49,567 bases of DNA from Escherichia phage CJ19. This document shows positions 1,877 through 46,124 of this stretch, one piece after another. How positions within the stretch are numbered: position 1 is the first letter of the stretch; every line of letters starts with the position of its first letter. Under the pieces are notes generated by a model that saw only the letters and a program-made list of their open reading frames with translations, searched no databases and was not told the origin of the DNA. A program made the translations under genes and the position numbers. The stretch lies in the sequence record MT176427.1, one strand, 5' to 3'.

Positions 1877-2286
1877 AGCATATCAGCAACTGCTTTCTTG
1901 TATTCCTCCTGACCGTATGCCACCGCCGCGAACCCGCCACGCTCACGCACGCGCCGGAGGAAATCTTTCTGCTCCTTACTGACTGGTGATGCCTTGCCTT
2001 TCCCGCTCTTATTGACGCGCTTCAATTCTATGGCCCCGAACGGATATTTACCGAACGGGCCTAGAAGGAATACAAAANCACTAACCCCTTTCAATAACCC
2101 GCTCTGAGCATCCTTTAGCGCCGTGTGGATGTGCTTCTTGTTCTCATTAACGGCGTGCCAGAACAGCAAATCAACATGCCTAACCTTAGTCCAAGTCACG
2201 CAGTCTACCTGGTGCTTGCTTTCCGTCCATGTGTCAGATTTGTCTGGAGTGTAATATTCCAGGTAGTCGCCTTTGTCTGTGATCAT
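1858..2286 (-). CDS. VRR-NUC / PD-(D/E)XK-like nuclease (putative)
   Basis: 142-aa ORF with a candidate (D)-x(n)-ELK nuclease motif (GAIELKRV); sits directly upstream of and overlapping the helicase gene; one codon contains an N at 2078. Confidence 0.4.
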   Translation of the reverse strand: MITDKGDYLEYYTPDKSDTWTESKHQVDCVTWTKVRHVDLLFWHAVNENKKHIHTALKDAQSGLLKGVSXFVFLLGPFGKYPFGAIELKRVNKSGKGKASPVSKEQKDFLRRVRERGGFAAVAYGQEEYKKAVADMLNSTNC

Positions 2287-4385
2287 AAGTTACCGTCCAA
2301 TCCAAAATCCTTACGTGAGATAATATCCTCACCCTTTGCATTCTTGCGGTGAGTTACCCGCACCGGATGCGCTATGTGGTGAGCATTGTTTAAAATCATT
2401 TTCGCACTTCTGTAAGCTGCCATTAATTTTGCGATCTTACTGTCATGAACGTGAGGTAATACCCCTTTCTGCTTCCATATCGTGTGGCATACCTGTGCCG
2501 TTGACTGAGGGAAGAACTTCTCATACGCGATGAAGTTAACTCCAACTGAGTCTGTCAGGTCGTACCGATAAAGAATGCCAGTATGATTACGTGTCAGCGT
2601 GACTTCGAAACTGTTAACTGTGCACCAGTCGTTTTTGGTGTAAGCCTTACCAGTCAGGTTATCATTGGGATCTTTCAGGCTCACGTCACAGCAACGGCAT
2701 ATTCTCGCCACTACGTCATTTTCAGCGCCACATCCCTTAACAATCACCTCGCCAGTGCGATCATCAATCTGGTCTTCACATATGCGAGACTTCCAGAAAT
2801 ACTCGCAACGATTTCCGTTTTCATCTCTGTGAATGCAGCGGCGAGCGTAAAAACTGTTCTCAGTTCCGCACAGTTCACATTTTTTCGGCTCTTTCTTACC
2901 ATCAAAGCGGCGCTGGTACTGAGCCTCTTCAAGAATCGGATCAAAGTAAAGCTGACCCAGCTCGTCCATGCAACCCGCAAAATCCCATACCAGGTGATCT
3001 TCCTTCACCATTCCCATCTCTTTTTGCCACGGCTTAAGCAATCTCATACCTCGACCAAGCAACTGGATCAGCAGAGTAAGTGAACCGATTTTGCGAAGGA
3101 TTACCGAAAAATCCCAAAACGGAACGTTAACTCCAGTGGTTAGCGCCATAACCTGAAATATGTATTTTATCTCGCCACGGTTAGCCGCCTCAAGTATTGC
3201 TTGTCGCTTTTTGGTGTTAGTCTTTTCCGTAATGATCTCATAGGTGGAGCCATGTGGAAGATAGCTCGCTGCCTCCTTGCAGTGTCGCTGACCTGCGCAC
3301 GTAATCAGTACGCCATTTCGCTTTTTCGCTTCCTCTACGACCATCCCCATGATTCGCTTTGTCATGCTGGCGTTGTCATGGATTTTATTTTCCATCGCCT
3401 TCATTTCTTTCTGGCTAAAATCCGCAGTTCCGTCCTGGCTTGATGCCTTGAACTCACCAAGATCATAGCCAGCGTCACCAACACTTCCGAATATTGTTGG
3501 AACAACTGAACCGAACTCAATAAGGTAATTAGTGTCGATGTTAGTAACCTGCTCACGCCAGAACCCAGGTAACTTAGGGTTATCGACAACAATCGGAGTT
3601 GTGCCTCTGAACTCAGAACCAGTCATGCCGAAGATGCGTAATTCTTTCCCGTTCTTCTCTTTGCAGCGGCGCATCAATTCAGTGATAATGATCGTGTACT
3701 GGCTTCGCTTGGTGCCGAGAACAGGCTTGCCAGTCTTCCGTCTGATTAGCAATTGCTTATCCATCACCTGAACGCCAACTTCTACGCCGTCAAGGTATCC
3801 ATTGACATAACCTTCGCTGTTTTTCGGGTAGTCAACGAATACACGCTCACCTTTTTCAGTGAGCATCATTTCAATCGTCTCTTCGTTGTCGATGGCGGCG
3901 GCAAGGTCTTCCCAATCCACCTGGTGACATTCATCAATACCCAGCACCATAGGTGTAAAATCACCAAGCGCCTTAAACAGACCGTTTGCAACCGTTCCTT
4001 CCGAACCGACAACGATTGGGAAGTAAGCTGATTTTGTGTTCAAGCCAGCACAGTAAACTGAGTTAGGAACGCCAAAGTTTGAGATCTCCTCACTATCCTG
4101 AGCGACAATATCGCCCTGACGCGCCAGTATCATCATCGACAAGCCCATTTCTTTNACGCGCGATGCGATCATGGCAAAGCCGATCGTCTTACCTGCCGAC
4201 ACTGACGCCTTAACGATGAATGGATGCTTATAGCGAGCAATGCGCTTGCCGATCTCGTCATACATTACGCACTGATACTCATAAGGAACCATGTCGCCAA
4301 ATGTGAATTTATCCTGAATCTCTTTAATCCTCTGCGGCCCGAGGTCTTCTATCTGTTTTTTAATGGATTTAATGCGCATAGCCAT
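2283..4385 (-). CDS. SF2 DNA helicase with C-terminal Cys-rich zinc-finger region
   Basis: Walker A (SAGKTIGFA), DExH box (GIDECHQ), C-terminal CxxC clusters; promoter cassette 4423-4467 upstream; N at 4155. Confidence 0.8.
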   Translation of the reverse strand: MAMRIKSIKKQIEDLGPQRIKEIQDKFTFGDMVPYEYQCVMYDEIGKRIARYKHPFIVKASVSAGKTIGFAMIASRXKEMGLSMMILARQGDIVAQDSEEISNFGVPNSVYCAGLNTKSAYFPIVVGSEGTVANGLFKALGDFTPMVLGIDECHQVDWEDLAAAIDNEETIEMMLTEKGERVFVDYPKNSEGYVNGYLDGVEVGVQVMDKQLLIRRKTGKPVLGTKRSQYTIIITELMRRCKEKNGKELRIFGMTGSEFRGTTPIVVDNPKLPGFWREQVTNIDTNYLIEFGSVVPTIFGSVGDAGYDLGEFKASSQDGTADFSQKEMKAMENKIHDNASMTKRIMGMVVEEAKKRNGVLITCAGQRHCKEAASYLPHGSTYEIITEKTNTKKRQAILEAANRGEIKYIFQVMALTTGVNVPFWDFSVILRKIGSLTLLIQLLGRGMRLLKPWQKEMGMVKEDHLVWDFAGCMDELGQLYFDPILEEAQYQRRFDGKKEPKKCELCGTENSFYARRCIHRDENGNRCEYFWKSRICEDQIDDRTGEVIVKGCGAENDVVARICRCCDVSLKDPNDNLTGKAYTKNDWCTVNSFEVTLTRNHTGILYRYDLTDSVGVNFIAYEKFFPQSTAQVCHTIWKQKGVLPHVHDSKIAKLMAAYRSAKMILNNAHHIAHPVRVTHRKNAKGEDIISRKDFGLDGNL

Positions 4386-5008: not shown

Positions 5009-5932
5009 ATGCACTACGATAAGAGAGAGGTTTTACCAAGAATGCGCGGCCTATGGGATAAGGCGCTTATCAATATATGTGGCGCAGATCCTAAGTTTTT
5101 CCAGACCAAAAAACACCAGCCATGCATTTATTGCGGAGGAAGCGATCGCGCGAGATGGACCAACAAAGTTAGCGAAGATGGTGATGGTGGAATTATCTGC
5201 AACCAATGCGGTTCAGGAGATGGTATTATTTGGGTCCAGAAGCTGCGAGGTGAGTCATTTAGTGAATGTATCGATGTTCTCGGTGAGTGGTTAAACCTTA
5301 TCCCTGTAGAAGTGGTTAATAAGGCAAATAAGCAAGCATCAAGGACTCAGCATTACAAAATGGGCGCTCAAGTAGATCATGAAAAAGTTCTTGAAGTCAT
5401 GGAGCGGACTGTAAGAGTTGAATCAAGCCAACTCACAACATATGAGGGTATTTATCTTGATGATGGATTCGATGTTGGTATAGCTAAGGATGGATCAATG
5501 ATTCATGCCGTACCTTGCTCGATGGTTTACGAGGATGGGATTGGTAATGAGTTCTGCAACTTAATGTTTATTGATGGAGATTCAAATGTTAAATTCCTTG
5601 CTGGTGATTACACTCGTGATTCTGTTGCTGTCATTGGTTCTTGGCAGGTTGATGGTTACACTTATGTTGTTGATAATTTTATTGATGGCGTACGTGTTCA
5701 TATTGCTACTGGGGGGCGTGAGGTGTTTGTTGCTTTCTCCTGTTATAACATGGAAATGGTTATTCACCGAGACAAGTCCCGCAGCTTCAGGATTGCTTGT
5801 CGTGATCATGATTTTGATATACTCTCTATTGCTGATGACAGGTCTGTTGGTGTAGTCATCCCAAATGATGGCAAGTCATTTAAAACAGGCATTAGAAAGA
5901 AAGTTTACAAAGCAAACGACTTGCTAAAATAA
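5009..5932 (+). CDS. DNA primase (zinc-binding N-terminus, Toprim-like core)
   Basis: N-terminal CxxC...CxxC (CIYCGG...CNQCG) zinc-binding element followed by acidic D-rich core; location next to helicase; followed by terminator 5933-5955. Confidence 0.55.
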   Translation: MHYDKREVLPRMRGLWDKALINICGADPKFFQTKKHQPCIYCGGSDRARWTNKVSEDGDGGIICNQCGSGDGIIWVQKLRGESFSECIDVLGEWLNLIPVEVVNKANKQASRTQHYKMGAQVDHEKVLEVMERTVRVESSQLTTYEGIYLDDGFDVGIAKDGSMIHAVPCSMVYEDGIGNEFCNLMFIDGDSNVKFLAGDYTRDSVAVIGSWQVDGYTYVVDNFIDGVRVHIATGGREVFVAFSCYNMEMVIHRDKSRSFRIACRDHDFDILSIADDRSVGVVIPNDGKSFKTGIRKKVYKANDLLK

Positions 5933-7948: not shown

Positions 7949-7977
7949 AATAAAAGCCCCGAAAGGGGCTTTATCTT
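7949..7977. terminator. bidirectional terminator between tail fibre and ssb
   Basis: Hairpin AAAGCCCC-GAAA-GGGGCTTT flanked by A-run and T-run; convergent genes. Confidence 0.6.
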
Positions 7978-8438
7978 TAGAATGGAATGTCGTCGTCGAA
8001 TTGCATTGACTGATTTGGTTGCTGCTGCTGGCGTTGTTGATGCTGTTGCTGAGGCTGATGTTGCTGCTGCCGTTGTTGACCTTGATTCTGCTGCTGCGCT
8101 GGTTCTCGCTGGCTGAATTGCAGTTGAGGTCGGATCATTTCAGCGGTGACGTAAACAGTCCCGTCATTACCCTGTCTAGACGATAAGTGAAGAGTGTCAG
8201 CAGAAATTGAAACAACCTTGCCCTCCTGGAACGCTTCATCATACCACTGCATAACATTTTCTTTTGCGAAGAATGTAGCTCTGTAGTTGCTGTAAACCGT
8301 CTCATCCTCGCCATTATGATTTCGAATCTTCATTCGTTCAGAAAGTTCTACGGCATACATTTTCCATCGCCCGTTATTGTTGCTACCTTCTTTTGTGAAT
8401 GGTTCTTTACGGATCTGACCAGTGATTACGTGTGGCAT
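7977..8438 (-). CDS. ssb: single-stranded DNA-binding protein
   Basis: C-terminus is Q-rich linker followed by the canonical acidic SSB tip DDDIPF. Confidence 0.7.
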   Translation of the reverse strand: MPHVITGQIRKEPFTKEGSNNNGRWKMYAVELSERMKIRNHNGEDETVYSNYRATFFAKENVMQWYDEAFQEGKVVSISADTLHLSSRQGNDGTVYVTAEMIRPQLQFSQREPAQQQNQGQQRQQQHQPQQQHQQRQQQQPNQSMQFDDDIPF

Positions 8439-34731: not shown

Positions 34732-34776
34732 ACTATAACAAAACCCGCCGGAGCGGGTTTAGCAATTAGTGCTATT
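34732..34776 (-). promoter_or_regulatory. early promoter cassette (ATAGCAC box + TGTTATAGT)
   Basis: Box 34757-34776; hairpin AACCCGC/GCGGGTT in spacer; 22-bp spacer. Confidence 0.5.
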
Positions 34777-38115: not shown

Positions 38116-38329
38116 TGTGGCGCTCCATGTAGTCAGCCATTTTGATAAGGTGTTCACCCATTGCGCGGACTGTTGTCGACTCCCTCATGGGGAACGCTCC
38201 TGATTCGTGTTCAATCACCATCTCGACGGTTACAACTCCCAGCGTCTTTCTCGTGTAAATGCAGCAAGAATCACCATCTGAATCGTTAAATATCTTGCTT
38301 TCTTTCTTAATTTCATAATCGTTAATCAT
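38105..38329 (-). CDS. hypothetical protein (74 aa), possible distant member of the small-paralog family
   Basis: ATGA overlap with upstream paralog; C-terminal helix VRAMGEHLIKMADYME loosely resembles family helix. Confidence 0.35.
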   Translation of the reverse strand: MINDYEIKKESKIFNDSDGDSCCIYTRKTLGVVTVEMVIEHESGAFPMRESTTVRAMGEHLIKMADYMERHNEQ

Positions 38330-38553
38330 ACAATACCCTTATCAGCTCTGTGTGCAGCTTCAATCAGATACGCAGCTAACTGGCGAGCCTGGTCTGGCGT
38401 GTACAGCATGTAACTACTTGGGTATGATTCTTCGTGAGGGTTGAAGTCAAGGCGCACCTTGAAAGTCACCTTGTCATTGCTATGAATCTTCACAGCCTCA
38501 ATTTCGGCCTGCTCGTTGTAGTCGTCTGCGATGCGTACGGCGGTTGTGCTCAT
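38326..38553 (-). CDS. small paralog family member P1 (75 aa)
   Basis: C-terminal motif YTPDQARQLAAYLIEAA shared with 39113-39334 and 39331-39537; promoter cassette 38593-38638. Confidence 0.5.
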   Translation of the reverse strand: MSTTAVRIADDYNEQAEIEAVKIHSNDKVTFKVRLDFNPHEESYPSSYMLYTPDQARQLAAYLIEAAHRADKGIV

Positions 38554-38923: not shown

Positions 38924-39120
38924 TCTACCACCTTCAATACTTTCTCTTTGCGATGCGGTGCGCCGGACTTATGCAGCCAGTAGCGAGCCTGGGATAACTG
39001 GCTGGTGTGCCCAACCGTAACCAACCAGAACAGGGCTACCCTTTTCTGGATTGCATACCACTTGACCGGATGACAGAAGGCCGTAGTCGTGTCAATCAAT
39101 GCGATCCTGAATTTACTCAT
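38920..39120 (-). CDS. hypothetical protein
   Basis: ORF-track frame 38920-39177; start moved to Met20 (MSKFRIA) just after upstream stop. Confidence 0.3.
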   Translation of the reverse strand: MSKFRIALIDTTTAFCHPVKWYAIQKRVALFWLVTVGHTSQLSQARYWLHKSGAPHRKEKVLKVVE

Positions 39121-39334
39121 CACCTTCTTCTTCCTCCACTTCCTCAGCCGCTTTGATGAGTGCCGCCGCCAGTTCACGAGCCTGCTCTGCTGTGTAGGTC
39201 ATGCCAGCGCCGTCTGCCTGCGAATCTGGCGCGAGGTCCAGGTGCACGCGCTTGCGCATCTTGCCAAATGGAACCTTGATTACTGAGATTTCCGTTTCCT
39301 GATTCCATGATGAATTGACTCGAATATCTCTCAT
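39113..39334 (-). CDS. small paralog family member P2 (73 aa)
   Basis: C-terminal motif YTAEQARELAAALIKAAEE plus poly-acidic tail; ATGA overlap with P3. Confidence 0.5.
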   Translation of the reverse strand: MRDIRVNSSWNQETEISVIKVPFGKMRKRVHLDLAPDSQADGAGMTYTAEQARELAAALIKAAEEVEEEEGDE

Positions 39335-39537
39335 TGCTTTTCAGCCTCTTCTGCTGCCAGGATAAGCGCCGCCGCCAGCTTGCGTGCTTGCTCTGGTGTG
39401 TAGTGCATCATGGTAACGCCCTGATCGTCAGTATCGAAGTCAATGGAGACTACGGCCTTGACTACTCCAGTCCGATTGAGCAGAACGCTAACCTCGGCAT
39501 CATCACCAACCACATCCTCAATGCGTAAAATTTCCAT
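39331..39537 (-). CDS. small paralog family member P3 (68 aa)
   Basis: C-terminal motif YTPEQARKLAAALILAAEEAE. Confidence 0.5.
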   Translation of the reverse strand: MEILRIEDVVGDDAEVSVLLNRTGVVKAVVSIDFDTDDQGVTMMHYTPEQARKLAAALILAAEEAEKQ

Positions 39538-39778: not shown

Positions 39779-39824
39779 ATCATAGCTGACTACCCGATTT
39801 GTTGTTTAGCAATTCGTGCTATTC
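39779..39824 (-). promoter_or_regulatory. early promoter cassette (ATAGCAC box + TATGAT)
   Basis: Box 39805-39824; 22-bp spacer; drives decayed P4 and P3-P2 operon. Confidence 0.45.
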
Positions 39825-40373
39825 ACCGTTCAGGAGAGTTTTCGCTTTCCGGTAGAACTGGATGGCCTTCTCCACCTCATCGGCATCATAGCCATGGATG
39901 GTTGGCGGCTTAATCGGCTCAACGTAGTGAGAGCGTGGCGCATCAGATCGGTACTGACTGCACCAGCTGTACACGTCTCGCTCATGCATTCCCGCCAGGG
40001 CTGGATGCACAAATATCTTGTCGCCAATCCGGCAGATGATTCCGGCGTCCTGGAGTGACGGCAGGATGTTATTGCTCAGGTCATTGTATATGCCATCACG
40101 TCCGACGAATGGTATGACCTCTCTGATTTGTCTGTATAGCTGGCTCACACAAACCATTCCGGTATTGCCGCATAAGCGCTTAATCTTATGCACCACGACG
40201 CCGTATTTGTAACTCAGCTTGACGCACGACATCTCTTCGGAGCTTGACCAATATTTGAAGGTGTCGCGATAGCCATTTGCACTGATCGCAACCTTAAGCG
40301 GTGACATGCCGCTTTCACTGGCTTCATTGAATATCTGCTCGCCTGTCATTCTTTCGCTCCCGAAGTAACTCAT
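39819..40373 (-). CDS. hypothetical protein sharing N- and C-terminal modules with the 527-aa ATPase
   Basis: SPLKVAISANGYR and ICRIGDKIFVHPALAG match PPLRVAINANGYR and TCLIGDKIYINPRLLG of 44541-46124. Confidence 0.5.
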   Translation of the reverse strand: MSYFGSERMTGEQIFNEASESGMSPLKVAISANGYRDTFKYWSSSEEMSCVKLSYKYGVVVHKIKRLCGNTGMVCVSQLYRQIREVIPFVGRDGIYNDLSNNILPSLQDAGIICRIGDKIFVHPALAGMHERDVYSWCSQYRSDAPRSHYVEPIKPPTIHGYDADEVEKAIQFYRKAKTLLNGE

Positions 40374-40894
40374 TATTTGGTTTCCTTAATCATTTCATGG
40401 TAGCGAGCCAGGGCAATGAGCGCACCTTCTTTCTGCTCACCTTGCAGGTCGATAACGTTCGGTGTGATCTTGAGCAGCCGAGACTTGAACCTTTCAACGA
40501 TTACCGCCTCCTTTTCCTCGTCACCCTTGCGTCGTGTTCCGGCCTGGATAGCACCATCAACCAGGGTGATGTAAGCACATCGAACATCGACATCATCCCC
40601 GAAGTCGCCATCCTTGATTGACAGCTTGGCCCGAACGTTCGCCGCCTGAATCTCTGGCATCCTGGCAACCGTGTTAGAGACGTACGAGGCTTTCAGCTTT
40701 GCAACGCTGTACTTACCGCCAGCCTCAAGGTCGTCGGCATTGATTCTGCCCATATCATCAGCCGTGAGTCCGTACATCTGGCGAGCTATCAGGTGGATTG
40801 GAACGTGGTAACTTCGGTTCTCGGACTTGAGCGCTTGCTCCGCCATGTAGCGGACGACATCTCCCAGGCTTACGGATTGATTATGATTTGACAT
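40373..40894 (-). CDS. hypothetical protein (173 aa)
   Basis: First leftward gene after the 40895-41612 control region. Confidence 0.4.
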   Translation of the reverse strand: MSNHNQSVSLGDVVRYMAEQALKSENRSYHVPIHLIARQMYGLTADDMGRINADDLEAGGKYSVAKLKASYVSNTVARMPEIQAANVRAKLSIKDGDFGDDVDVRCAYITLVDGAIQAGTRRKGDEEKEAVIVERFKSRLLKITPNVIDLQGEQKEGALIALARYHEMIKETK

Positions 40895-41031
40895 AGATAT
40901 TACTCCTGATTGGTGGTCTTCGTTAAGATGGGTGCAATATTACCAGCATGGTTACATGTTATCAAGTGTTATTGATGCAAATATTCGACTTAGTTACGTT
41001 TTACGACCTCTTGAGCCAGATATAGCTCAAT

Positions 41032-41280
41032 GTAACCACTATGTACAGCTTGTACATCAAATTTCGCGGAGGATTGCCCCATATATGCCTTTTTATTCCT
41101 ACAATGTCATCCCATTCTTACAAGTGTCAGAATATATCATAGAAAGCTATCGCAATATCCAATACCTCTTATCTACATTATCTACATATATATATAATAA
41201 TAATAATAATATAGATAAAAGGTTGTTATATAAGGATATTTTATTGTAACCATAGCGTAACTAGGCGTTATAGGCGTACC
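41032..41280. repeat. AT-rich control-region element, copy B
   Basis: Contains ATAGCTCAATGTAA (41032-41045), (AT)5(AAT)5 at 41186-41210, TAAAAGGTTGTTATA...GATATTTTATTGTAAC and GCGTAA/GGCGTT/GGCGTA repeats. Confidence 0.7.
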
Positions 41281-41527
41281 TGATTCCACGCCGGATGGAT
41301 TTGTCTACAGAGTATAACATGCATAACGCGTATGCGGTGGAAACGTGTGGCGGAAAAATCCTACCAGGCGATCATGGGATCAGATCTCACCCCATCATTC
41401 CCCCCACCAATGAATCATCGCTCAATTCGCAACAATCAAAAACATCATTGCATCGGAAGCAATATTGCTGTATGTGCAATAGTCATGATAATCATTGCAA
41501 TATCTGCAACAATCCATAAATCCAACG

Positions 41528-41574
41528 AATAGCACTTTTTGCTAATGACCGATCAGGTGTGATTCGCTATTATT
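41528..41574 (+). promoter_or_regulatory. promoter cassette (ATAGCAC box + TATTAT)
   Basis: Box 41528-41546; -10 at 41569-41574; leader CCATCGAAACGAG. Confidence 0.5.
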
Positions 41575-41612
41575 ACTCCATCGAAACGAGTGAAGAGAAC
41601 TGGAGAAAATAA

Positions 41613-41816
41613 ATGAGCACTGTAAAAATGTATTGCTACATCGTGATGTCTGAGCCGTGTGATCCGAATTACGATACGACAGTTCACTGCGTATGCCTCA
41701 GTGAACAGATGGCTAAGCAGGTTTGCGAGAAGATGAACATGCGCGATGGTTTCAACAACTATGAATACTACGAAGCGGAGTTGCAGAAATGGAGTTACGC
41801 CAAGAATGTGCACTGA
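41613..41816 (+). CDS. hypothetical Cys-containing small protein (67 aa)
   Basis: Promoter cassette 41528-41574 and leader CCATCGAAACGAG upstream. Confidence 0.4.
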   Translation: MSTVKMYCYIVMSEPCDPNYDTTVHCVCLSEQMAKQVCEKMNMRDGFNNYEYYEAELQKWSYAKNVH

Positions 41817-42015
41817 TTGGCAGCGGTAACGAGTATCTAATCCGTTGCGACAACTAAAGTCCTGAAGTGTTCCGCCTGGTGGGTGAGATGCCAGTACAGG
41901 CAACCGCTATGAATGCTAAGACTATTGAGTGGGCGCTACTTTACGGTGGTGTGGCACGGGTAATCGGCCAGGCCAAAATCACTGTTGATATTTCACTAAT
42001 TTAAGGAATTGACAA

Positions 42016-42447
42016 ATGAGCATTGTTCACGGTGTTATCTATAAGGGAAAAACTGACGGAAAGGTAAGGTTTGTTACGCCATCCGGCAGGGTTTATATGT
42101 GGGCCTACGGAGCCTGGCGCTTCCAGCACCAATTCAATGAGTCGATCTACAATAGCTTGCGATCCTGTATCGGGAATGGCGTTAGCAATATATACCTGGC
42201 ATCAAGTCGCAAGGTGTTCATGGAAAAGCGTGTAGCGCTCGATCCGATTGACTACTTTGCCGTTGAGTTCATGGGGCATCGGTTTAGTAAAAGACGATTG
42301 TTCCGCAAAGGTGAGATTGCAATGGAACAACAAAATGCGGCTGCTGCTTTCGGCAAAGCGGCACGTCAACGCCTGACTGGTTATCATCCATGCTTTCCGC
42401 CAACGCCGTTTTATGCTCACTGTAAACGACCACCAAAAAATCGTTAA
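42016..42447 (+). CDS. hypothetical protein (143 aa)
   Basis: ORF with RBS; no motif recognised. Confidence 0.4.
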   Translation: MSIVHGVIYKGKTDGKVRFVTPSGRVYMWAYGAWRFQHQFNESIYNSLRSCIGNGVSNIYLASSRKVFMEKRVALDPIDYFAVEFMGHRFSKRRLFRKGEIAMEQQNAAAAFGKAARQRLTGYHPCFPPTPFYAHCKRPPKNR

Positions 42448-42491
42448 ATAGCACGAATTGCTAAACTAAGCCTCACGGATTGAGGCATAAT
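42447..42491 (+). promoter_or_regulatory. promoter cassette (ATAGCAC box + CATAAT)
   Basis: Box 42447-42465; hairpin GCCTCA/TGAGGC; leader TCATCGAAACGAAG. Confidence 0.5.
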
Positions 42492-43379: not shown

Positions 43380-44044
43380 AAAAGGTAATTTACTGCTTGT
43401 TCGACGGTTCTGGTATCGCTGGCCTCCCATGGGCGGAAGATGGTCACACCGTCTACTGCTTCAATGCGGACTCCGGCAATCATGGCGAATACCATATCAA
43501 GATGAAGCATGAGAACATCCACTACGTCAACATGTGGATTGACAAGGATTTCATCACTAAGTGTGAATTGCTCGGCCTGCCTCCGGCGCAAATGGTTATC
43601 GGCTTTCCTGATTGCACGCTGTTCTCTCAGTCTGGATCACAGCATGAGCGCGGGGAAGATGAGCTGGCATACGCCCTGGCTAACGCGAAGCTCGTCGAAG
43701 AAGTCGGCAATCACTTCCAGGCACCATGGATGGTTGAGAATCCGGTAGGCAAGCTGTCAAGCCTGTGGCGTAAGCCTGACTTCTATTTCAATCCTTGCGA
43801 TTATGGCGGTTACGTTGATCACGATGATGTTTATCACCCAAGAATGCCCCCTCGTAATGCTTACAATAAAAAGACTTGCATTTGGTGTGGCAATGGATTT
43901 GTTGAACCTATTAAAAAGCCAGTTGAGAGCATTGGATTCTTCTGGGCCTGGAAATACTGCGGCGGAAAGTCTGCAAAGACAAAGGTACTCCGCTCATTAA
44001 CACCGGAAGGCTTTGCTCGCGCACTATATGAAAGCAACAAATAG
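43376..44044 (+). CDS. DNA methyltransferase-like protein (C5-cytosine-type motif order)
   Basis: Motif I-like FDGSG, motif IV-like GFPDC with Cys, motif VI-like ENPVG in the right order and spacing; short (222 aa). Confidence 0.4.
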   Translation: MKKVIYCLFDGSGIAGLPWAEDGHTVYCFNADSGNHGEYHIKMKHENIHYVNMWIDKDFITKCELLGLPPAQMVIGFPDCTLFSQSGSQHERGEDELAYALANAKLVEEVGNHFQAPWMVENPVGKLSSLWRKPDFYFNPCDYGGYVDHDDVYHPRMPPRNAYNKKTCIWCGNGFVEPIKKPVESIGFFWAWKYCGGKSAKTKVLRSLTPEGFARALYESNK

Positions 44045-44084
44045 CACTAATTGCTAAAGCCCTTCGGGGCTTTTCCTGTATATT
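44040..44084 (+). promoter_or_regulatory. promoter cassette (ATAGCAC box + TGTATATT)
   Basis: Box 44040-44058; hairpin AGCCC/GGGCT; leader TCATCGAAACGAAACAC. Confidence 0.5.
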
Positions 44085-44120
44085 CATCTCATCGAAACGA
44101 AACACGCAAAGGAAATCAAA

Positions 44121-44471
44121 ATGACAGCAACAACTAAAAACTTCATTAGCAACGAAAACGTATTATACAAAGCTCGTGTTAAAGACGGTGTAGAGCAAAT
44201 CAAGAAAGATGGTAAATGGGTTAACCTGGAAGAACGCGGTAAGTACATCAAGACAAAAACTCTTTACTGCACGAAGGTTAATCACAGGTCAGCAGTTAAA
44301 AAAGACTTCAAAGAAGGTAAGCGCTATCAGGTAAATATTCATGCTGGCCTTGGCCAATCTGCCGGTTACATTTACGATGAGGATGGTAATGCTTGGCAGC
44401 TTTACCGAAACGAAGAGGTTGGCTTCATGAGCCTCTGCGGTACGTACAAGTGGCAGGCGGCGTACAAATAA
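44121..44471 (+). CDS. hypothetical Lys-rich protein (116 aa)
   Basis: Promoter cassette 44040-44084 and leader TCATCGAAACGAAACACGCAAAGGAAA upstream. Confidence 0.4.
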   Translation: MTATTKNFISNENVLYKARVKDGVEQIKKDGKWVNLEERGKYIKTKTLYCTKVNHRSAVKKDFKEGKRYQVNIHAGLGQSAGYIYDEDGNAWQLYRNEEVGFMSLCGTYKWQAAYK

Positions 44472-44540: not shown

Positions 44541-46124
44541 ATGTTTGATTTCAACGAAGATAAATTGTCAATCGATCAGGTCATGGCTGTAGCCGCTGCC
44601 GATAACCTGCCACCTTTGCGCGTTGCCATCAATGCGAACGGATACAGGCAGAGCCAATCATTCTGGAAAGCCCCAACAGAAATTGACTCAGGCGGTGACA
44701 AATATCCGGTTATCTCACTTGGTAACGATTATGATGTCGTTGGTAAGCTGTCAAGCAATGCCGCTCGTTCAGTTCAATTCCCCGAGTCGTCCGCTTACAT
44801 GCATTTCCTCGGATGCATATCAGCCGCCATGCTGGGCCGATTTACGGTTGAGTATCACGGAACACAACAGCCGACCGCTCTTTACGTCGTAACCAGTCAG
44901 CCACCATCGACAGGTAAATCAGCCATCAACTCACTTTCGCTGGCCCCGATGATCGCAGAGACTGAGCGACTCAACGAGATCCGAAAGCGCGACCGCAAGA
45001 AGATTATGGCTAAACTATCTGCTCTATCCAAGGAGATGAAGCAGGAAAAATCACCGTCCGACATGGCGGCACTGTTTGAGGAAAAAGAAGAACTGGAAGA
45101 AAAACTGGAACGCCTTTGTGACATCGTATTCCCCGTATCCGACACCACGCCGGAAGGTCTGGCGCGAATCAACAACCGCCAGGGTAACTTCTCTGTGATC
45201 TCGGATGAAGCGACGAGCGTAAACTCACTGTTAGGCATGACCTATGGTGATGGCTCAAAGAAAACGAACAGCGAACTTGTGCTTAAGGCATGGGATGCTG
45301 GTAACGTATCTATCGCCCGTGCGAACGCAGACAACAACATGAGCTTTATTGCGATGGGCTGCATATCTGTAATTGCGCAGGATGAAACAATCAACGCGAT
45401 CATGAATGCTGGCGCGCGTGGTATCGGTGTATCCGAGCGATTCTTGCTTGTGCGTGAGAAGTCATTCCTTGGCGAGCGTGTATTCGTTGACGAAAAAGGC
45501 GAATCAACATACGAGCCGATTGATGGCGGACTCAAGGCGGACTACTTCCGTCTGGTCCATGAGATCATGAGCGAACACGAAGTCAACCTGACAGTGAGCA
45601 CGTCGGCGATGAAATATCTCAACCGTGCGCGTCAGGATATGGAACCTCACCTTGCGGACGGCGGGAAGTATTCACACACAATGCTTCGCGGCGCGCTGGG
45701 TAAGTTCGATAAGCAGGCTATCAGGATCGCGGCTGTTCTTCACACTGTGCGTAACTGGTTTAATCCCAATGGCGGGAGTCCGAAGAAGTCCAGAGAGATT
45801 GAGCTTGACACAATGCAGGAAGCGGTAATTATGTTCCAGGAGCTGAGTAAGACTTATCTGTCATCTGCAAACGCTGCTGGTCATGCTGGCGACCATGCTG
45901 AGATGAATAAGCTGATCGATATTCTGATCAAGCAAGGTAAGAACGGGAAAGGCGTTGTAGGTGTCAGATCCCTATATGAAGCGGCTCGTAAGGTTAAGCC
46001 ATTCGAGGGCCAGGCTGGCGTAATGACTCGAATCAAAGACCATCTGATCCCTATGCTTGATGAGAAAAACTATACGTGCCTGATTGGTGATAAAATTTAC
46101 ATTAATCCGCGACTGCTGGGGTAA
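44541..46124 (+). CDS. P-loop NTPase (putative replication/recombination ATPase)
   Basis: 527-aa ORF with P-loop-like SQPPSTGKSA; N- and C-terminal modules shared with 39819-40373. Confidence 0.5.
   Translation: MFDFNEDKLSIDQVMAVAAADNLPPLRVAINANGYRQSQSFWKAPTEIDSGGDKYPVISLGNDYDVVGKLSSNAARSVQFPESSAYMHFLGCISAAMLGRFTVEYHGTQQPTALYVVTSQPPSTGKSAINSLSLAPMIAETERLNEIRKRDRKKIMAKLSALSKEMKQEKSPSDMAALFEEKEELEEKLERLCDIVFPVSDTTPEGLARINNRQGNFSVISDEATSVNSLLGMTYGDGSKKTNSELVLKAWDAGNVSIARANADNNMSFIAMGCISVIAQDETINAIMNAGARGIGVSERFLLVREKSFLGERVFVDEKGESTYEPIDGGLKADYFRLVHEIMSEHEVNLTVSTSAMKYLNRARQDMEPHLADGGKYSHTMLRGALGKFDKQAIRIAAVLHTVRNWFNPNGGSPKKSREIELDTMQEAVIMFQELSKTYLSSANAAGHAGDHAEMNKLIDILIKQGKNGKGVVGVRSLYEAARKVKPFEGQAGVMTRIKDHLIPMLDEKNYTCLIGDKIYINPRLLG

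Follow-up and report, generated by a model that had tools for sequence, protein, structure and literature searches.

Winged-helix domains and replicative helicases

Terminal winged-helix (WH) domains mediate origin or loader contacts in MCM, ORC, Cdc6, and gp-alpha of phage P4, and many WH domains bind proteins rather than DNA. In phage P4, the WH origin-binding domain of gp-alpha is reportedly regulated by Cnr, a related WH protein (Yeo et al. 2002, Mol Microbiol 43:855, cited in PMC4889955). The repressor forms of papillomavirus E2 and the short pi forms of plasmid R6K consist of the DNA-binding domain only and act as dominant modulators. Kazlauskas et al. (2016, PMC4889955) place DUF3987 proteins in SF6, as putative replicative helicases that are related to MCM and carry a wHTH at the C-terminus, and the PriCT-DUF3987 protein AgaPH has been demonstrated to be a 5'-3' helicase (PMC11724360).

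The window analyzed in this study comprises 49,567 nucleotides of Escherichia phage CJ19 (sequence record MT176427.1), a T1-like coliphage genome (Drexlerviridae). It encodes a putative DUF3987 helicase and, on the other strand, a small protein that resembles the two ends of this helicase.

The putative replicative helicase of CJ19

The gene at 44541..46124 (+) encodes a 527-aa protein that matched Pfam PF13148 over residues 81-430 (E 6.7e-39; 134.5 bits against a cutoff of 27) and the phrog_2373 profile, annotated as 'DNA helicase' (E 3.8e-255). Its Walker A/P-loop, SQPPSTGKSA, lies at 44895..44924 (+; residues 119-128), and Q120, P121, P122, G125, K126, and S127 were invariant across 45 helicase homologues, including the complete GKS at residues 125-127. 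Residues 218-223 comprise a hydrophobic strand and SDE, with S221 and E223 invariant in the 45 homologues. The AF2 model of the protein had a pLDDT of 89.7 and a pTM of 0.87, and the top 50 Foldseek matches of this model were all MCM subunits (E 6e-6 to 4e-3), at TM-scores of only about 0.35. By its PF13148 match, the 527-aa protein belongs to DUF3987/SF6 and is a putative replicative helicase; unwinding has been shown for the distant member AgaPH only.

Two terminal modules of the helicase are relevant here. The N module (44541..44690, +; residues 1-50) is followed by a linker of lower confidence to about residue 65. The C-terminal WH (45891..46121, +; residues 451-527), which is the part matched by hhalign to the WH of the small protein, has helices at residues 451-468, 475-482, and 494-508 and strands at residues 472-474, 512-515, and 518-521 in the AF2 model. 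In addition, CJ19 codes for a DnaG-type primase (5009-5932), an SF2 helicase (2283-4385), SSB (7977-8438), Erf, and an ExoVIII-like exonuclease; no DNA polymerase gene was found among the CJ19 genes.

A core-less paralogue of the helicase

The small gene at 39819..40373 (-) encodes 184 aa plus the stop codon. A previous sequence-only reading had described its product as the N- and C-terminal modules of the 527-aa ATPase without the ATPase core. Both open reading frames and the peptides quoted from them were found as described, the genes lie on opposite strands at a measured distance of 4.2 kb (about 4 kb in that reading), and the P-loop, absent from the small protein, occurs in the ATPase between the shared modules. 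The description held for residues 1-128, whereas residues 129-184 form an extra tail.

Sequence statistics, phylogeny, and the agreement of the predicted secondary structures all bore out the module relationship. By BLASTP, residues 1-48 of the small protein aligned with helicase residues 1-48 (33% identity, E 1e-8), and residues 64-128 aligned collinearly with helicase residues 463-527 (37% identity, E 1e-12). The comparison of family alignments by hhalign paired residues 56-128 with helicase residues 454-527 (99.3% probability, E 1.2e-20) and also recovered the N module (98.4%, E 5.3e-15), with the meaningful alignment confined to residues 1 to about 50. Both the pairwise and the profile alignments that the reading had proposed were thus significant. 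The HMM of the small family matched all tested helicases in two segments (HMM positions 1-52 and 41-129), at about E 1e-45, and the PHROG profiles of the two proteins matched each other in both directions. PF13148 had no match in the 184-aa protein, and hhalign paired only helicase residues 1-50 and 454-527. As it lacks the ATPase core and PF13148, the small protein is a paralogue by descent and not a functional member of the DUF3987 family. Judged from these alignments, its residues 1-128 are the helicase, end to end, minus residues about 50-440.

The small protein matched phrog_7327 over its full length (E 1.9e-66; residues 3-184 on profile positions 3-179 of 179), a family of unknown function whose members are named hypothetical in database records. 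Its homologues formed at least 91 clusters, nearly all of 175-190 aa. When 1.84 billion representative proteins were searched exhaustively with the small-family profile (HMMER), only 51 matches were returned, comprising about ten clusters of stand-alone proteins of 164-185 aa, fragments, T1-like DUF3987 helicases (515-530 aa), and three CHAT-TPR proteins aligned to the tail helix alone. BFVD gave nothing beyond small-family members and helicase fragments. At the sequence level the motifs did not turn out to be a common domain of many unrelated proteins, as the earlier reading had allowed they might; on these searches, the N and WH modules are lineage-specific in sequence. A PDB sequence search with the small protein gave nothing below E 0.4, and the NCBIfam and PADLOC models gave no match to a known defence or anti-defence protein.

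Modules and conserved surfaces of the small protein

The N module (40224..40373, -; residues 1-50) is homologous to helicase residues 1-50 and contains helices at residues 11-21, 25-33, and 45-49, with the conserved motif PLKVAISANGYR..W. It was modeled by AF2 at a pLDDT of about 90, within a small-protein model of pLDDT 84.4 and pTM 0.70, and the helices at 11-21 and 25-33 were common to the small-protein and helicase models. The second module (39990..40211, -; residues 55-128) is homologous to helicase residues 454-527 and consists of helices at residues 55-68, 76-83, and 95-109, a strand at 73-75, and a hairpin at 113-116/119-122. A helix-strand-helix-helix-beta-hairpin unit was present in both models (residues 55-122 of the small protein and 451-521 of the helicase), and the 184-aa protein showed both the H1-strand-H2-H3-beta-hairpin topology and a structural match to known WH domains. 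As modeled, these units are winged helices. The alignments with ORC and Cdc6 exceed the length of a bare WH, which points to packing of the N helices onto the WH in the small protein; a similar N module-WH contact may exist within the helicase itself.

The tail (39822..39989, -; residues 129-184) is specific to the small family and has no helicase counterpart. It consists of a disordered linker at about residues 140-160 and a conserved amphipathic helix at residues 164-181 (YDADEVEKAIQFYRKAKTLLNGE), whose motif EV.KA[IL]..YR..K was retained in the most divergent members, even in those at E 1e-6. We considered an origin of the tail from the helicase, from the gene downstream of the helicase, or from another part of the window and found no match. 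The tail helix resembles a single TPR helix, and the profile matches to the CHAT-TPR proteins reflect a TPR-like helix only.

In the comparison over the 129 shared positions, the two families conserve the same residue at 37, among them those of the PPLRVAINANGYR..W core, of the basic patch KGVVG.RS.YEA.RKV.PF.G, and of the wing C.IGDK.Y..P. Another 24 positions were conserved in the helicase only and 18 in the small family only; a further six, conserved in both families with different residues, fall mostly in WH helix H3. The net charge of the WH was about +5 in both families, and that of H3 plus the wing was -1.7 in the small family, with few basic residues, against -0.2 in the helicase. The altered, net acidic H3 of the small family argues against identical ligand specificity and against classical reading of the DNA major groove.

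Genomic context and the two-gene unit

The 8.5-kb region around the small gene shared 94.7% identity with Escherichia phage vB_EcoM_50EP (Nouzillyvirus), and 139 phage records in all matched this region. Upstream of the small gene lies a DUF7174 gene (40373..40894, -; 173 aa, phrog_4841; Pfam PF23796, E 5e-52), whose stop codon overlaps the small-gene start as UAAUG, with an AAGGA Shine-Dalgarno sequence upstream. In all intact loci examined, from Rogunavirinae, Braunvirinae, and Nouzillyvirus, the DUF7174 gene came immediately before the small gene, with a stop/start overlap of 1 or 4 nt (UAAUG or ATGA), and the pair stood first in one of the two arms of a divergent early region, the other arm being that of the helicase. 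The small gene stands at the start of an early accessory region rich in small unknown genes. A further helicase fragment in DUF7174 was ruled out by hhalign (probability 0.9%). No description of DUF7174, or of the paralogy between the small protein and the helicase, was found in the searchable literature.

A candidate sigma-70 promoter for the DUF7174/small-gene unit (TTGATA, 17 nt, TG-TAATAT) is located at 40937..40965 (-) in the AT-rich divergent region (40895-41530); the consensus scan gave 7 sites against 5.3 expected, which is weak evidence for this candidate. At the other end, a T1-type promoter at 39779..39822 (-) extends from the ATAGCACGAATTGCTAA upstream/-35 element to the TATGAT -10 element and begins at the small-gene stop codon. 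The 17-nt motif ATAGCAC-N-AATTGCTAA occurred in 18 copies in the window (0.47 expected). It belongs to the conserved T1-type promoter, with an upstream element, a TTGCTA -35, a TATAGT-like -10, and an CATCGAAACGA leader, and the copies were co-oriented with genes. One such promoter at the small-gene stop and none inside the pair indicate that the pair is a discrete two-gene unit. We also considered the palindromic 17-mer at the 3' end of the small gene as an operator for the WH protein. This was rejected, since the motif is a general T1-type promoter and is equally common in loci without the small gene. It is well supported that the small gene is a working protein-coding gene of a predicted early two-gene unit, translationally coupled to DUF7174.

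Distribution and origin

The helicase was carried by about 640 of 50,697 phage records, and only 106 records had the full-length small gene of the window type. When the Sf12-type variant with a different tail is counted, roughly 140 records have the small gene, in agreement with the 138 records carrying full-length DUF7174. The majority of T1-like records with the helicase lacked the small gene, which was present in about 20%; Tls is one of the T1-like phages without it.

A neighbour-joining tree was built on the 129 shared positions from the 26 small proteins and 72 helicases that remained after redundancy was removed at 80% identity. The small family was monophyletic in 75 of 100 bootstraps, the helicases alone in none of 100, and the small family was nested, on long branches, beside the cluster of E. 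coli T1-like helicases. The N-module signature was also found in a 34%-identical helicase on a 78-kb contig. The nested tree and this distant signature together indicate that the direction was from helicase to small protein. It is well supported that the small family arose a single time, within the lineage of E. coli T1-like helicases, when a duplicated gene lost about 400 codons in frame. The same holds for the extent of the loss, which took the entire AAA+ core and lid and left a three-helix N module fused to the WH. Taken alone, the evolutionary identity of the small protein as a helicase paralogue is very probable.

Identity between the small protein and the helicase termini ranged from 32% in the window clade, the most diverged, to 65% in the Sf12-type. 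In 10 paired genomes, small/helicase identity within genomes was not above that between genomes, so ongoing gene conversion was rejected, with limited power given the close similarity among all of these helicase termini. The small gene and the helicase gene were not linked by any inverted repeat at the DNA level, and no core-less paralogue was present within 10 kb on either side of distant DUF3987 helicases in two lineages.

Selection, cassette exchange, and disrupted alleles

The small gene is under purifying selection, with an omega of about 0.2-0.3 (0.13-0.5 across all modules and 0.17-0.28 in unsaturated pairs). Compared over the same pairs of genomes, its rate exceeds that of the corresponding helicase modules by a factor of 4-10, with a median dN of 0.37 against 0.09 for the N module and 0.48 against 0.05 for the WH. 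Between CJ19 and 50EP, the helicase termini were identical and DUF7174 was 97% identical, and DNA identity fell from 93-100% in the backbone to 50-75% exactly over the body of the small gene (39850-40389), returning to 95-97% at its 3' end. A drop limited to the small-gene body points to cassette exchange of this gene, for which the conserved DUF7174 C-terminus on one side and the conserved tail and promoter on the other could serve as homology arms. Internal mosaicism was also found, as the N module of e4/1c was shared with BECP10 and its WH and tail with CJ19.

The small gene was intact in 21 of 26 sampled independent lineages. The five disrupted alleles are those of the vB_EcoS-12210I clone (43 near-identical isolates; TGA after codon 140), DTL (TAG after codon 141), CY1 (stop at codon 12), CEB_EC3a (stop at about codon 38), and IME542 (multiple lesions). 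Since these alleles occur in viable plaque-isolated phages, the small gene is not essential, and its absence from most relatives together with the five broken lineages indicates that replication does not need it.

The stops of 12210I and DTL fall in neighboring codons, right at the boundary between WH and tail, and the reading frame of the tail is preserved. They could represent tolerated loss of the tail or read-through. Programmed read-through is less parsimonious for these two stops than simple inactivation, because the lesions of the other alleles lie elsewhere (codon 12, about codon 38, or multiple sites).

Proposed function and alternative explanations

Terminal WH domains mediate origin or loader contacts in MCM, ORC, Cdc6, and P4 gp-alpha, and therefore the small protein would most likely bind the same ligand as the helicase modules. 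Without the ATPase core it would be unable to bind ATP or to join the helicase ring. It keeps the conserved terminal surfaces of the helicase, namely the wing, the PPLRVAINANGYR..W core, and the basic face KG..G.RS.YEA.RKV.PF.G. Its most likely ligand would be that of the helicase modules, either origin or fork DNA or a protein partner; alternatively, it may pair with the WH of the helicase itself. Either binding mode would modulate helicase recruitment or loading in trans, probably jointly with DUF7174. The changed H3 and the new tail may add a second, different contact, possibly with DUF7174 or a host factor. The small protein would thus be an accessory modulator and not a core component of replication. 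Identity and mechanism taken jointly, we put forward this modulator role tentatively, as a reading that falls somewhat short of probable.

The sequence-only reading had suggested a competitor, a regulator, or a second adaptor for the same partner, and our data fit these suggestions only partly. The 37 of 129 identical conserved positions favor a shared partner or a regulator, whereas the altered H3, the 4-10 times faster evolution, the exchange independent of the helicase, and the dispensability of the gene argue against a simple same-partner model. A regulator that shares a partner with the helicase is expected to track it, and cassette swaps beside an identical helicase count against the modulator role. 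In addition, a virulent phage has no obvious need for a Cnr-like copy-number brake. The fast evolution, cassette exchange, patchiness, and recurrent inactivation suit a role in conflict at least as well.

Such a role forms the next reading, in which the small protein would imitate the exposed ends of the helicase, thereby titrating away a helicase-directed sensor or inhibitor of host defence or a factor of a competitor phage; the diversity of the small gene would then reflect an arms race and not replication control. Its place at the head of an early region crowded with small uncharacterized genes is in line with this, as is a rate 4-10 times that of the parent modules, yet with purifying selection within alleles. 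The exact cassette swap on a 93-100% identical backbone, the mosaicism between the N module and the WH plus tail, the patchy presence in about 20% of T1-like records, and the recurrent nonsense alleles, a pattern of a non-essential gene that is costly or sensed in some hosts, point the same way. However, a decoy is expected to stay helicase-like, and the CJ19 allele is just 32% identical to the helicase. The protein had no PADLOC or NCBIfam defence or anti-defence match, no literature on its family was found, and high variability is general among early accessory genes of T1-like phages, so that it is weak evidence here. We regard the decoy reading as unlikely, though it is the main rival of the modulator role. 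Less likely again is its fuller form, a hypervariable self-derived mimic of the helicase docking modules in phage-host or phage-phage conflict, which could, for example, soak up a host immune sensor or inhibitor that recognizes the N and WH modules of the helicase.

As another alternative, the WH may have been recruited as an ordinary transcription factor or DNA-binding protein for early genes, with the link to the helicase gone. The WH fold and its net charge of about +5 would suit this, the changed H3 suggests a new specificity, and the early operon adjoins the AT-rich divergent control region. Nevertheless, H3 and the wing are net acidic in the small family, with few basic residues, and the sole over-represented palindromic motif is the general T1-type promoter, equally frequent without the small gene. 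The strict retention of a non-WH N module and of surface motifs identical to those of the helicase would also go unexplained, and we consider this regulator to be improbable, to a degree similar to that of the fuller mimic.

A decaying, non-functional remnant of a rearranged helicase duplicate would explain the dispensability, the five disrupted alleles, the absence from most relatives, and the fast evolution. This is very improbable, being largely refuted by dN/dS and conservation: omega was 0.13-0.5 in all modules (0.17-0.28 in unsaturated pairs), the full-length open reading frame was intact in 21 of 26 lineages across Rogunavirinae, Braunvirinae, and Nouzillyvirus, the translational coupling and Shine-Dalgarno sequence were conserved, the AF2 model was confident and compact, and the tail motif persisted in members as remote as E 1e-6. 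Resemblance by chance, or through a promiscuous domain of many unrelated proteins, is refuted, with next to no probability left to it, by two collinear modules at E 1e-20 and 5e-15, by matches limited to T1-like helicases and the small family among 1.84 billion representatives, and by the nested phylogeny.

These results give an evolutionary identity to the phrog_7327 'hypothetical protein' of about 140 sequenced T1-like coliphages, a clean natural case of a helicase cut down to its terminal recruitment modules. Intact and nonsense natural alleles on near-isogenic backgrounds, such as the intact copy of BEK1-1 and the TGA allele of 12210I, make the function of the small gene directly testable. 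If the small protein modulates the loading of an MCM-like helicase, it would reveal the role of the N-terminal and WH modules of DUF3987 proteins. If it is a decoy, it would represent a new counter-defence strategy, in which a phage derives a decoy from its own essential replication protein; to our knowledge this class is so far undescribed. If neither applies, the locus is a tidy domain-loss paralogy in a variable early region.

Comparison with known systems

The 527-aa parent is a full member of the SF6/DUF3987 helicases by its PF13148 core, Walker A motif, and C-terminal wHTH, and it may also have an MCM-like fold; the small protein shares the two terminal modules by descent. Unlike them, the small protein is without the whole ATPase region and hence is no helicase. 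Other DUF3987 proteins begin with a PriCT or primase domain instead of the short helical module. The WH domains of MCM, ORC, and Cdc6 share only about 9-15% sequence identity, so the likeness lies at the level of the fold, and they are parts of large ATPases rather than stand-alone paralogues.

As with the E2 repressor and R6K pi forms, a motor-less or activation-domain-less version exists beside a full-length form, with a shared binding module. Those forms come from the same gene through internal starts or splicing, whereas the small gene of CJ19 is a separate, diverged gene on the other strand that has a partner gene of its own and encodes a new tail.

Cnr and gp-alpha of phage P4 offer the same arrangement as CJ19, a replicative helicase with a C-terminal WH and a small stand-alone WH relative in one genome, and the small protein is indeed a stand-alone homologue of the WH of its own helicase (hhalign E 1.2e-20). 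The systems differ in that gp-alpha is an SF3 (D5-type) primase-helicase, whereas the CJ19 parent is of the SF6/DUF3987 type. In contrast to Cnr, the small protein also keeps the helicase N-terminal module, bears an extra tail, and clearly stems from the helicase gene by a recent internal deletion; CJ19, unlike P4, is virulent, so it has no obvious need for copy-number control. Cnr regulates its helicase/initiator through WH-WH or WH-DNA interactions, and a comparable action of the small protein is suggested by analogy. As a domain-only paralogue of a replication helicase, the small protein of CJ19 has its nearest precedent in P4 Cnr.

Exchange and domain structure of the small gene

The small gene (39819-40373, minus strand), which encodes the 184-aa paralogue of the DUF3987 helicase, was found to be exchanged between near-identical phages by an exact cassette replacement, as revealed by comparison of window positions 39850-40389 with the corresponding locus (L001) of phage 50EP. 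The flanks of this cassette shared 93-100% identity with L001. The conserved C-terminus of the upstream DUF7174 gene and the conserved tail of the small gene plus its promoter may act as recombination arms. Additionally, the small gene was internally mosaic, with different nearest relatives for its N module and for its WH module plus tail.

Two independent in-frame stops were identified in adjacent codons exactly at the WH/tail boundary, namely TGA at codon 141 in the Veterinaerplatzvirus 12210I-type gene and TAG at codon 142 in that of DTL (small-gene loci with in-frame stops: L030 9001-9540, L012, and L009 8671-9210). The tail 3' of both stops kept its frame and a conserved sequence. These stops could give rise to tail-less truncation or read-through isoforms. 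Within the tail of the window protein, a single TPR-like helix is formed by residues 157-184 (DADEVEKAIQFYRKAK, 39822-39905), which matched the TPR repeats (…ERAIQHYQLALEV…) in each of three large CHAT-TPR proteins five to eight times. This helix may be a protein-protein docking element.

Directly 3' of the small gene, tandem small paralogous genes were observed on the minus strand (39113-39334, 39331-39537, and 38326-38553), representing a locally amplified family that was also present in L030 (9763-10020). Two of the tandem paralogues matched phrog_13316, and the family had the common C-terminal motif Y(T/S)(P/A)(E/D)QAR.LAA.LI.AA.E.

Promoters and variable slots

The conserved 17-nt motif ATAGCAC-N-AATTGCTAA, found at 18 sites in the window against 0.47 expected by chance, is the upstream/-35 portion of a T1-type sigma-70 promoter. 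Examples were located at 544-560, 1858-1874, 34759-34775, and 39806-39822 on the minus strand, and at 42448-42464 and 44041-44057 on the plus strand; at every site, the motif followed the orientation of the local genes. In the promoter layout, a TTGCTA -35 and a TATAGT-like -10 preceded a CATCGAAACGA leader, which was followed by a Shine-Dalgarno sequence, and all related loci carried the motif at comparable density. In many of these promoters, a short hairpin of GC-rich sequence (GCCTCACGGATTGAGGC, GCCCTTCGGGGC, and CCCGCTCCGGCGGG are examples) lay in the spacer between -35 and -10, for instance at 42466-42486 and 44059-44072 and, on the minus strand, in the spacers that follow the motifs at 34775 and at 560. 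This hairpin resembles a terminator or an RNA-structure element set within the next promoter.

The stretches 41588-42438 and 44041-44469 are further variable slots of the rightward early arm between the window and L001. The former had no match in 50EP, the closest relative, and the ORF at 42016-42447, part of this stretch, had no PHROG match. An HNH endonuclease gene was present in 50EP (L001 8179-8676), and the counterpart position of the window contained only a 71%-identical stretch.

Helicase records and gene neighbourhood

Helicases highly similar to that of this T1-like coliphage were observed in about 21 records of a phage collection named 'Campylobacter phage', as well as in one 'Pseudomonas phage' and one 'Streptococcus phage' record. 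These records are probably mislabelled or contaminant genomes.

Among the distant DUF3987 lineages, the helicase gene was directly followed by a DnaG-type primase in L041 (10001-12319), and by genes for an SF2 helicase, a DUF3799 protein, an AAA_24 protein, and SSB in L040 (10001-17136). By contrast, about 39 kb separate the primase from the helicase in the T1-like window, whose replication module is thus dispersed.
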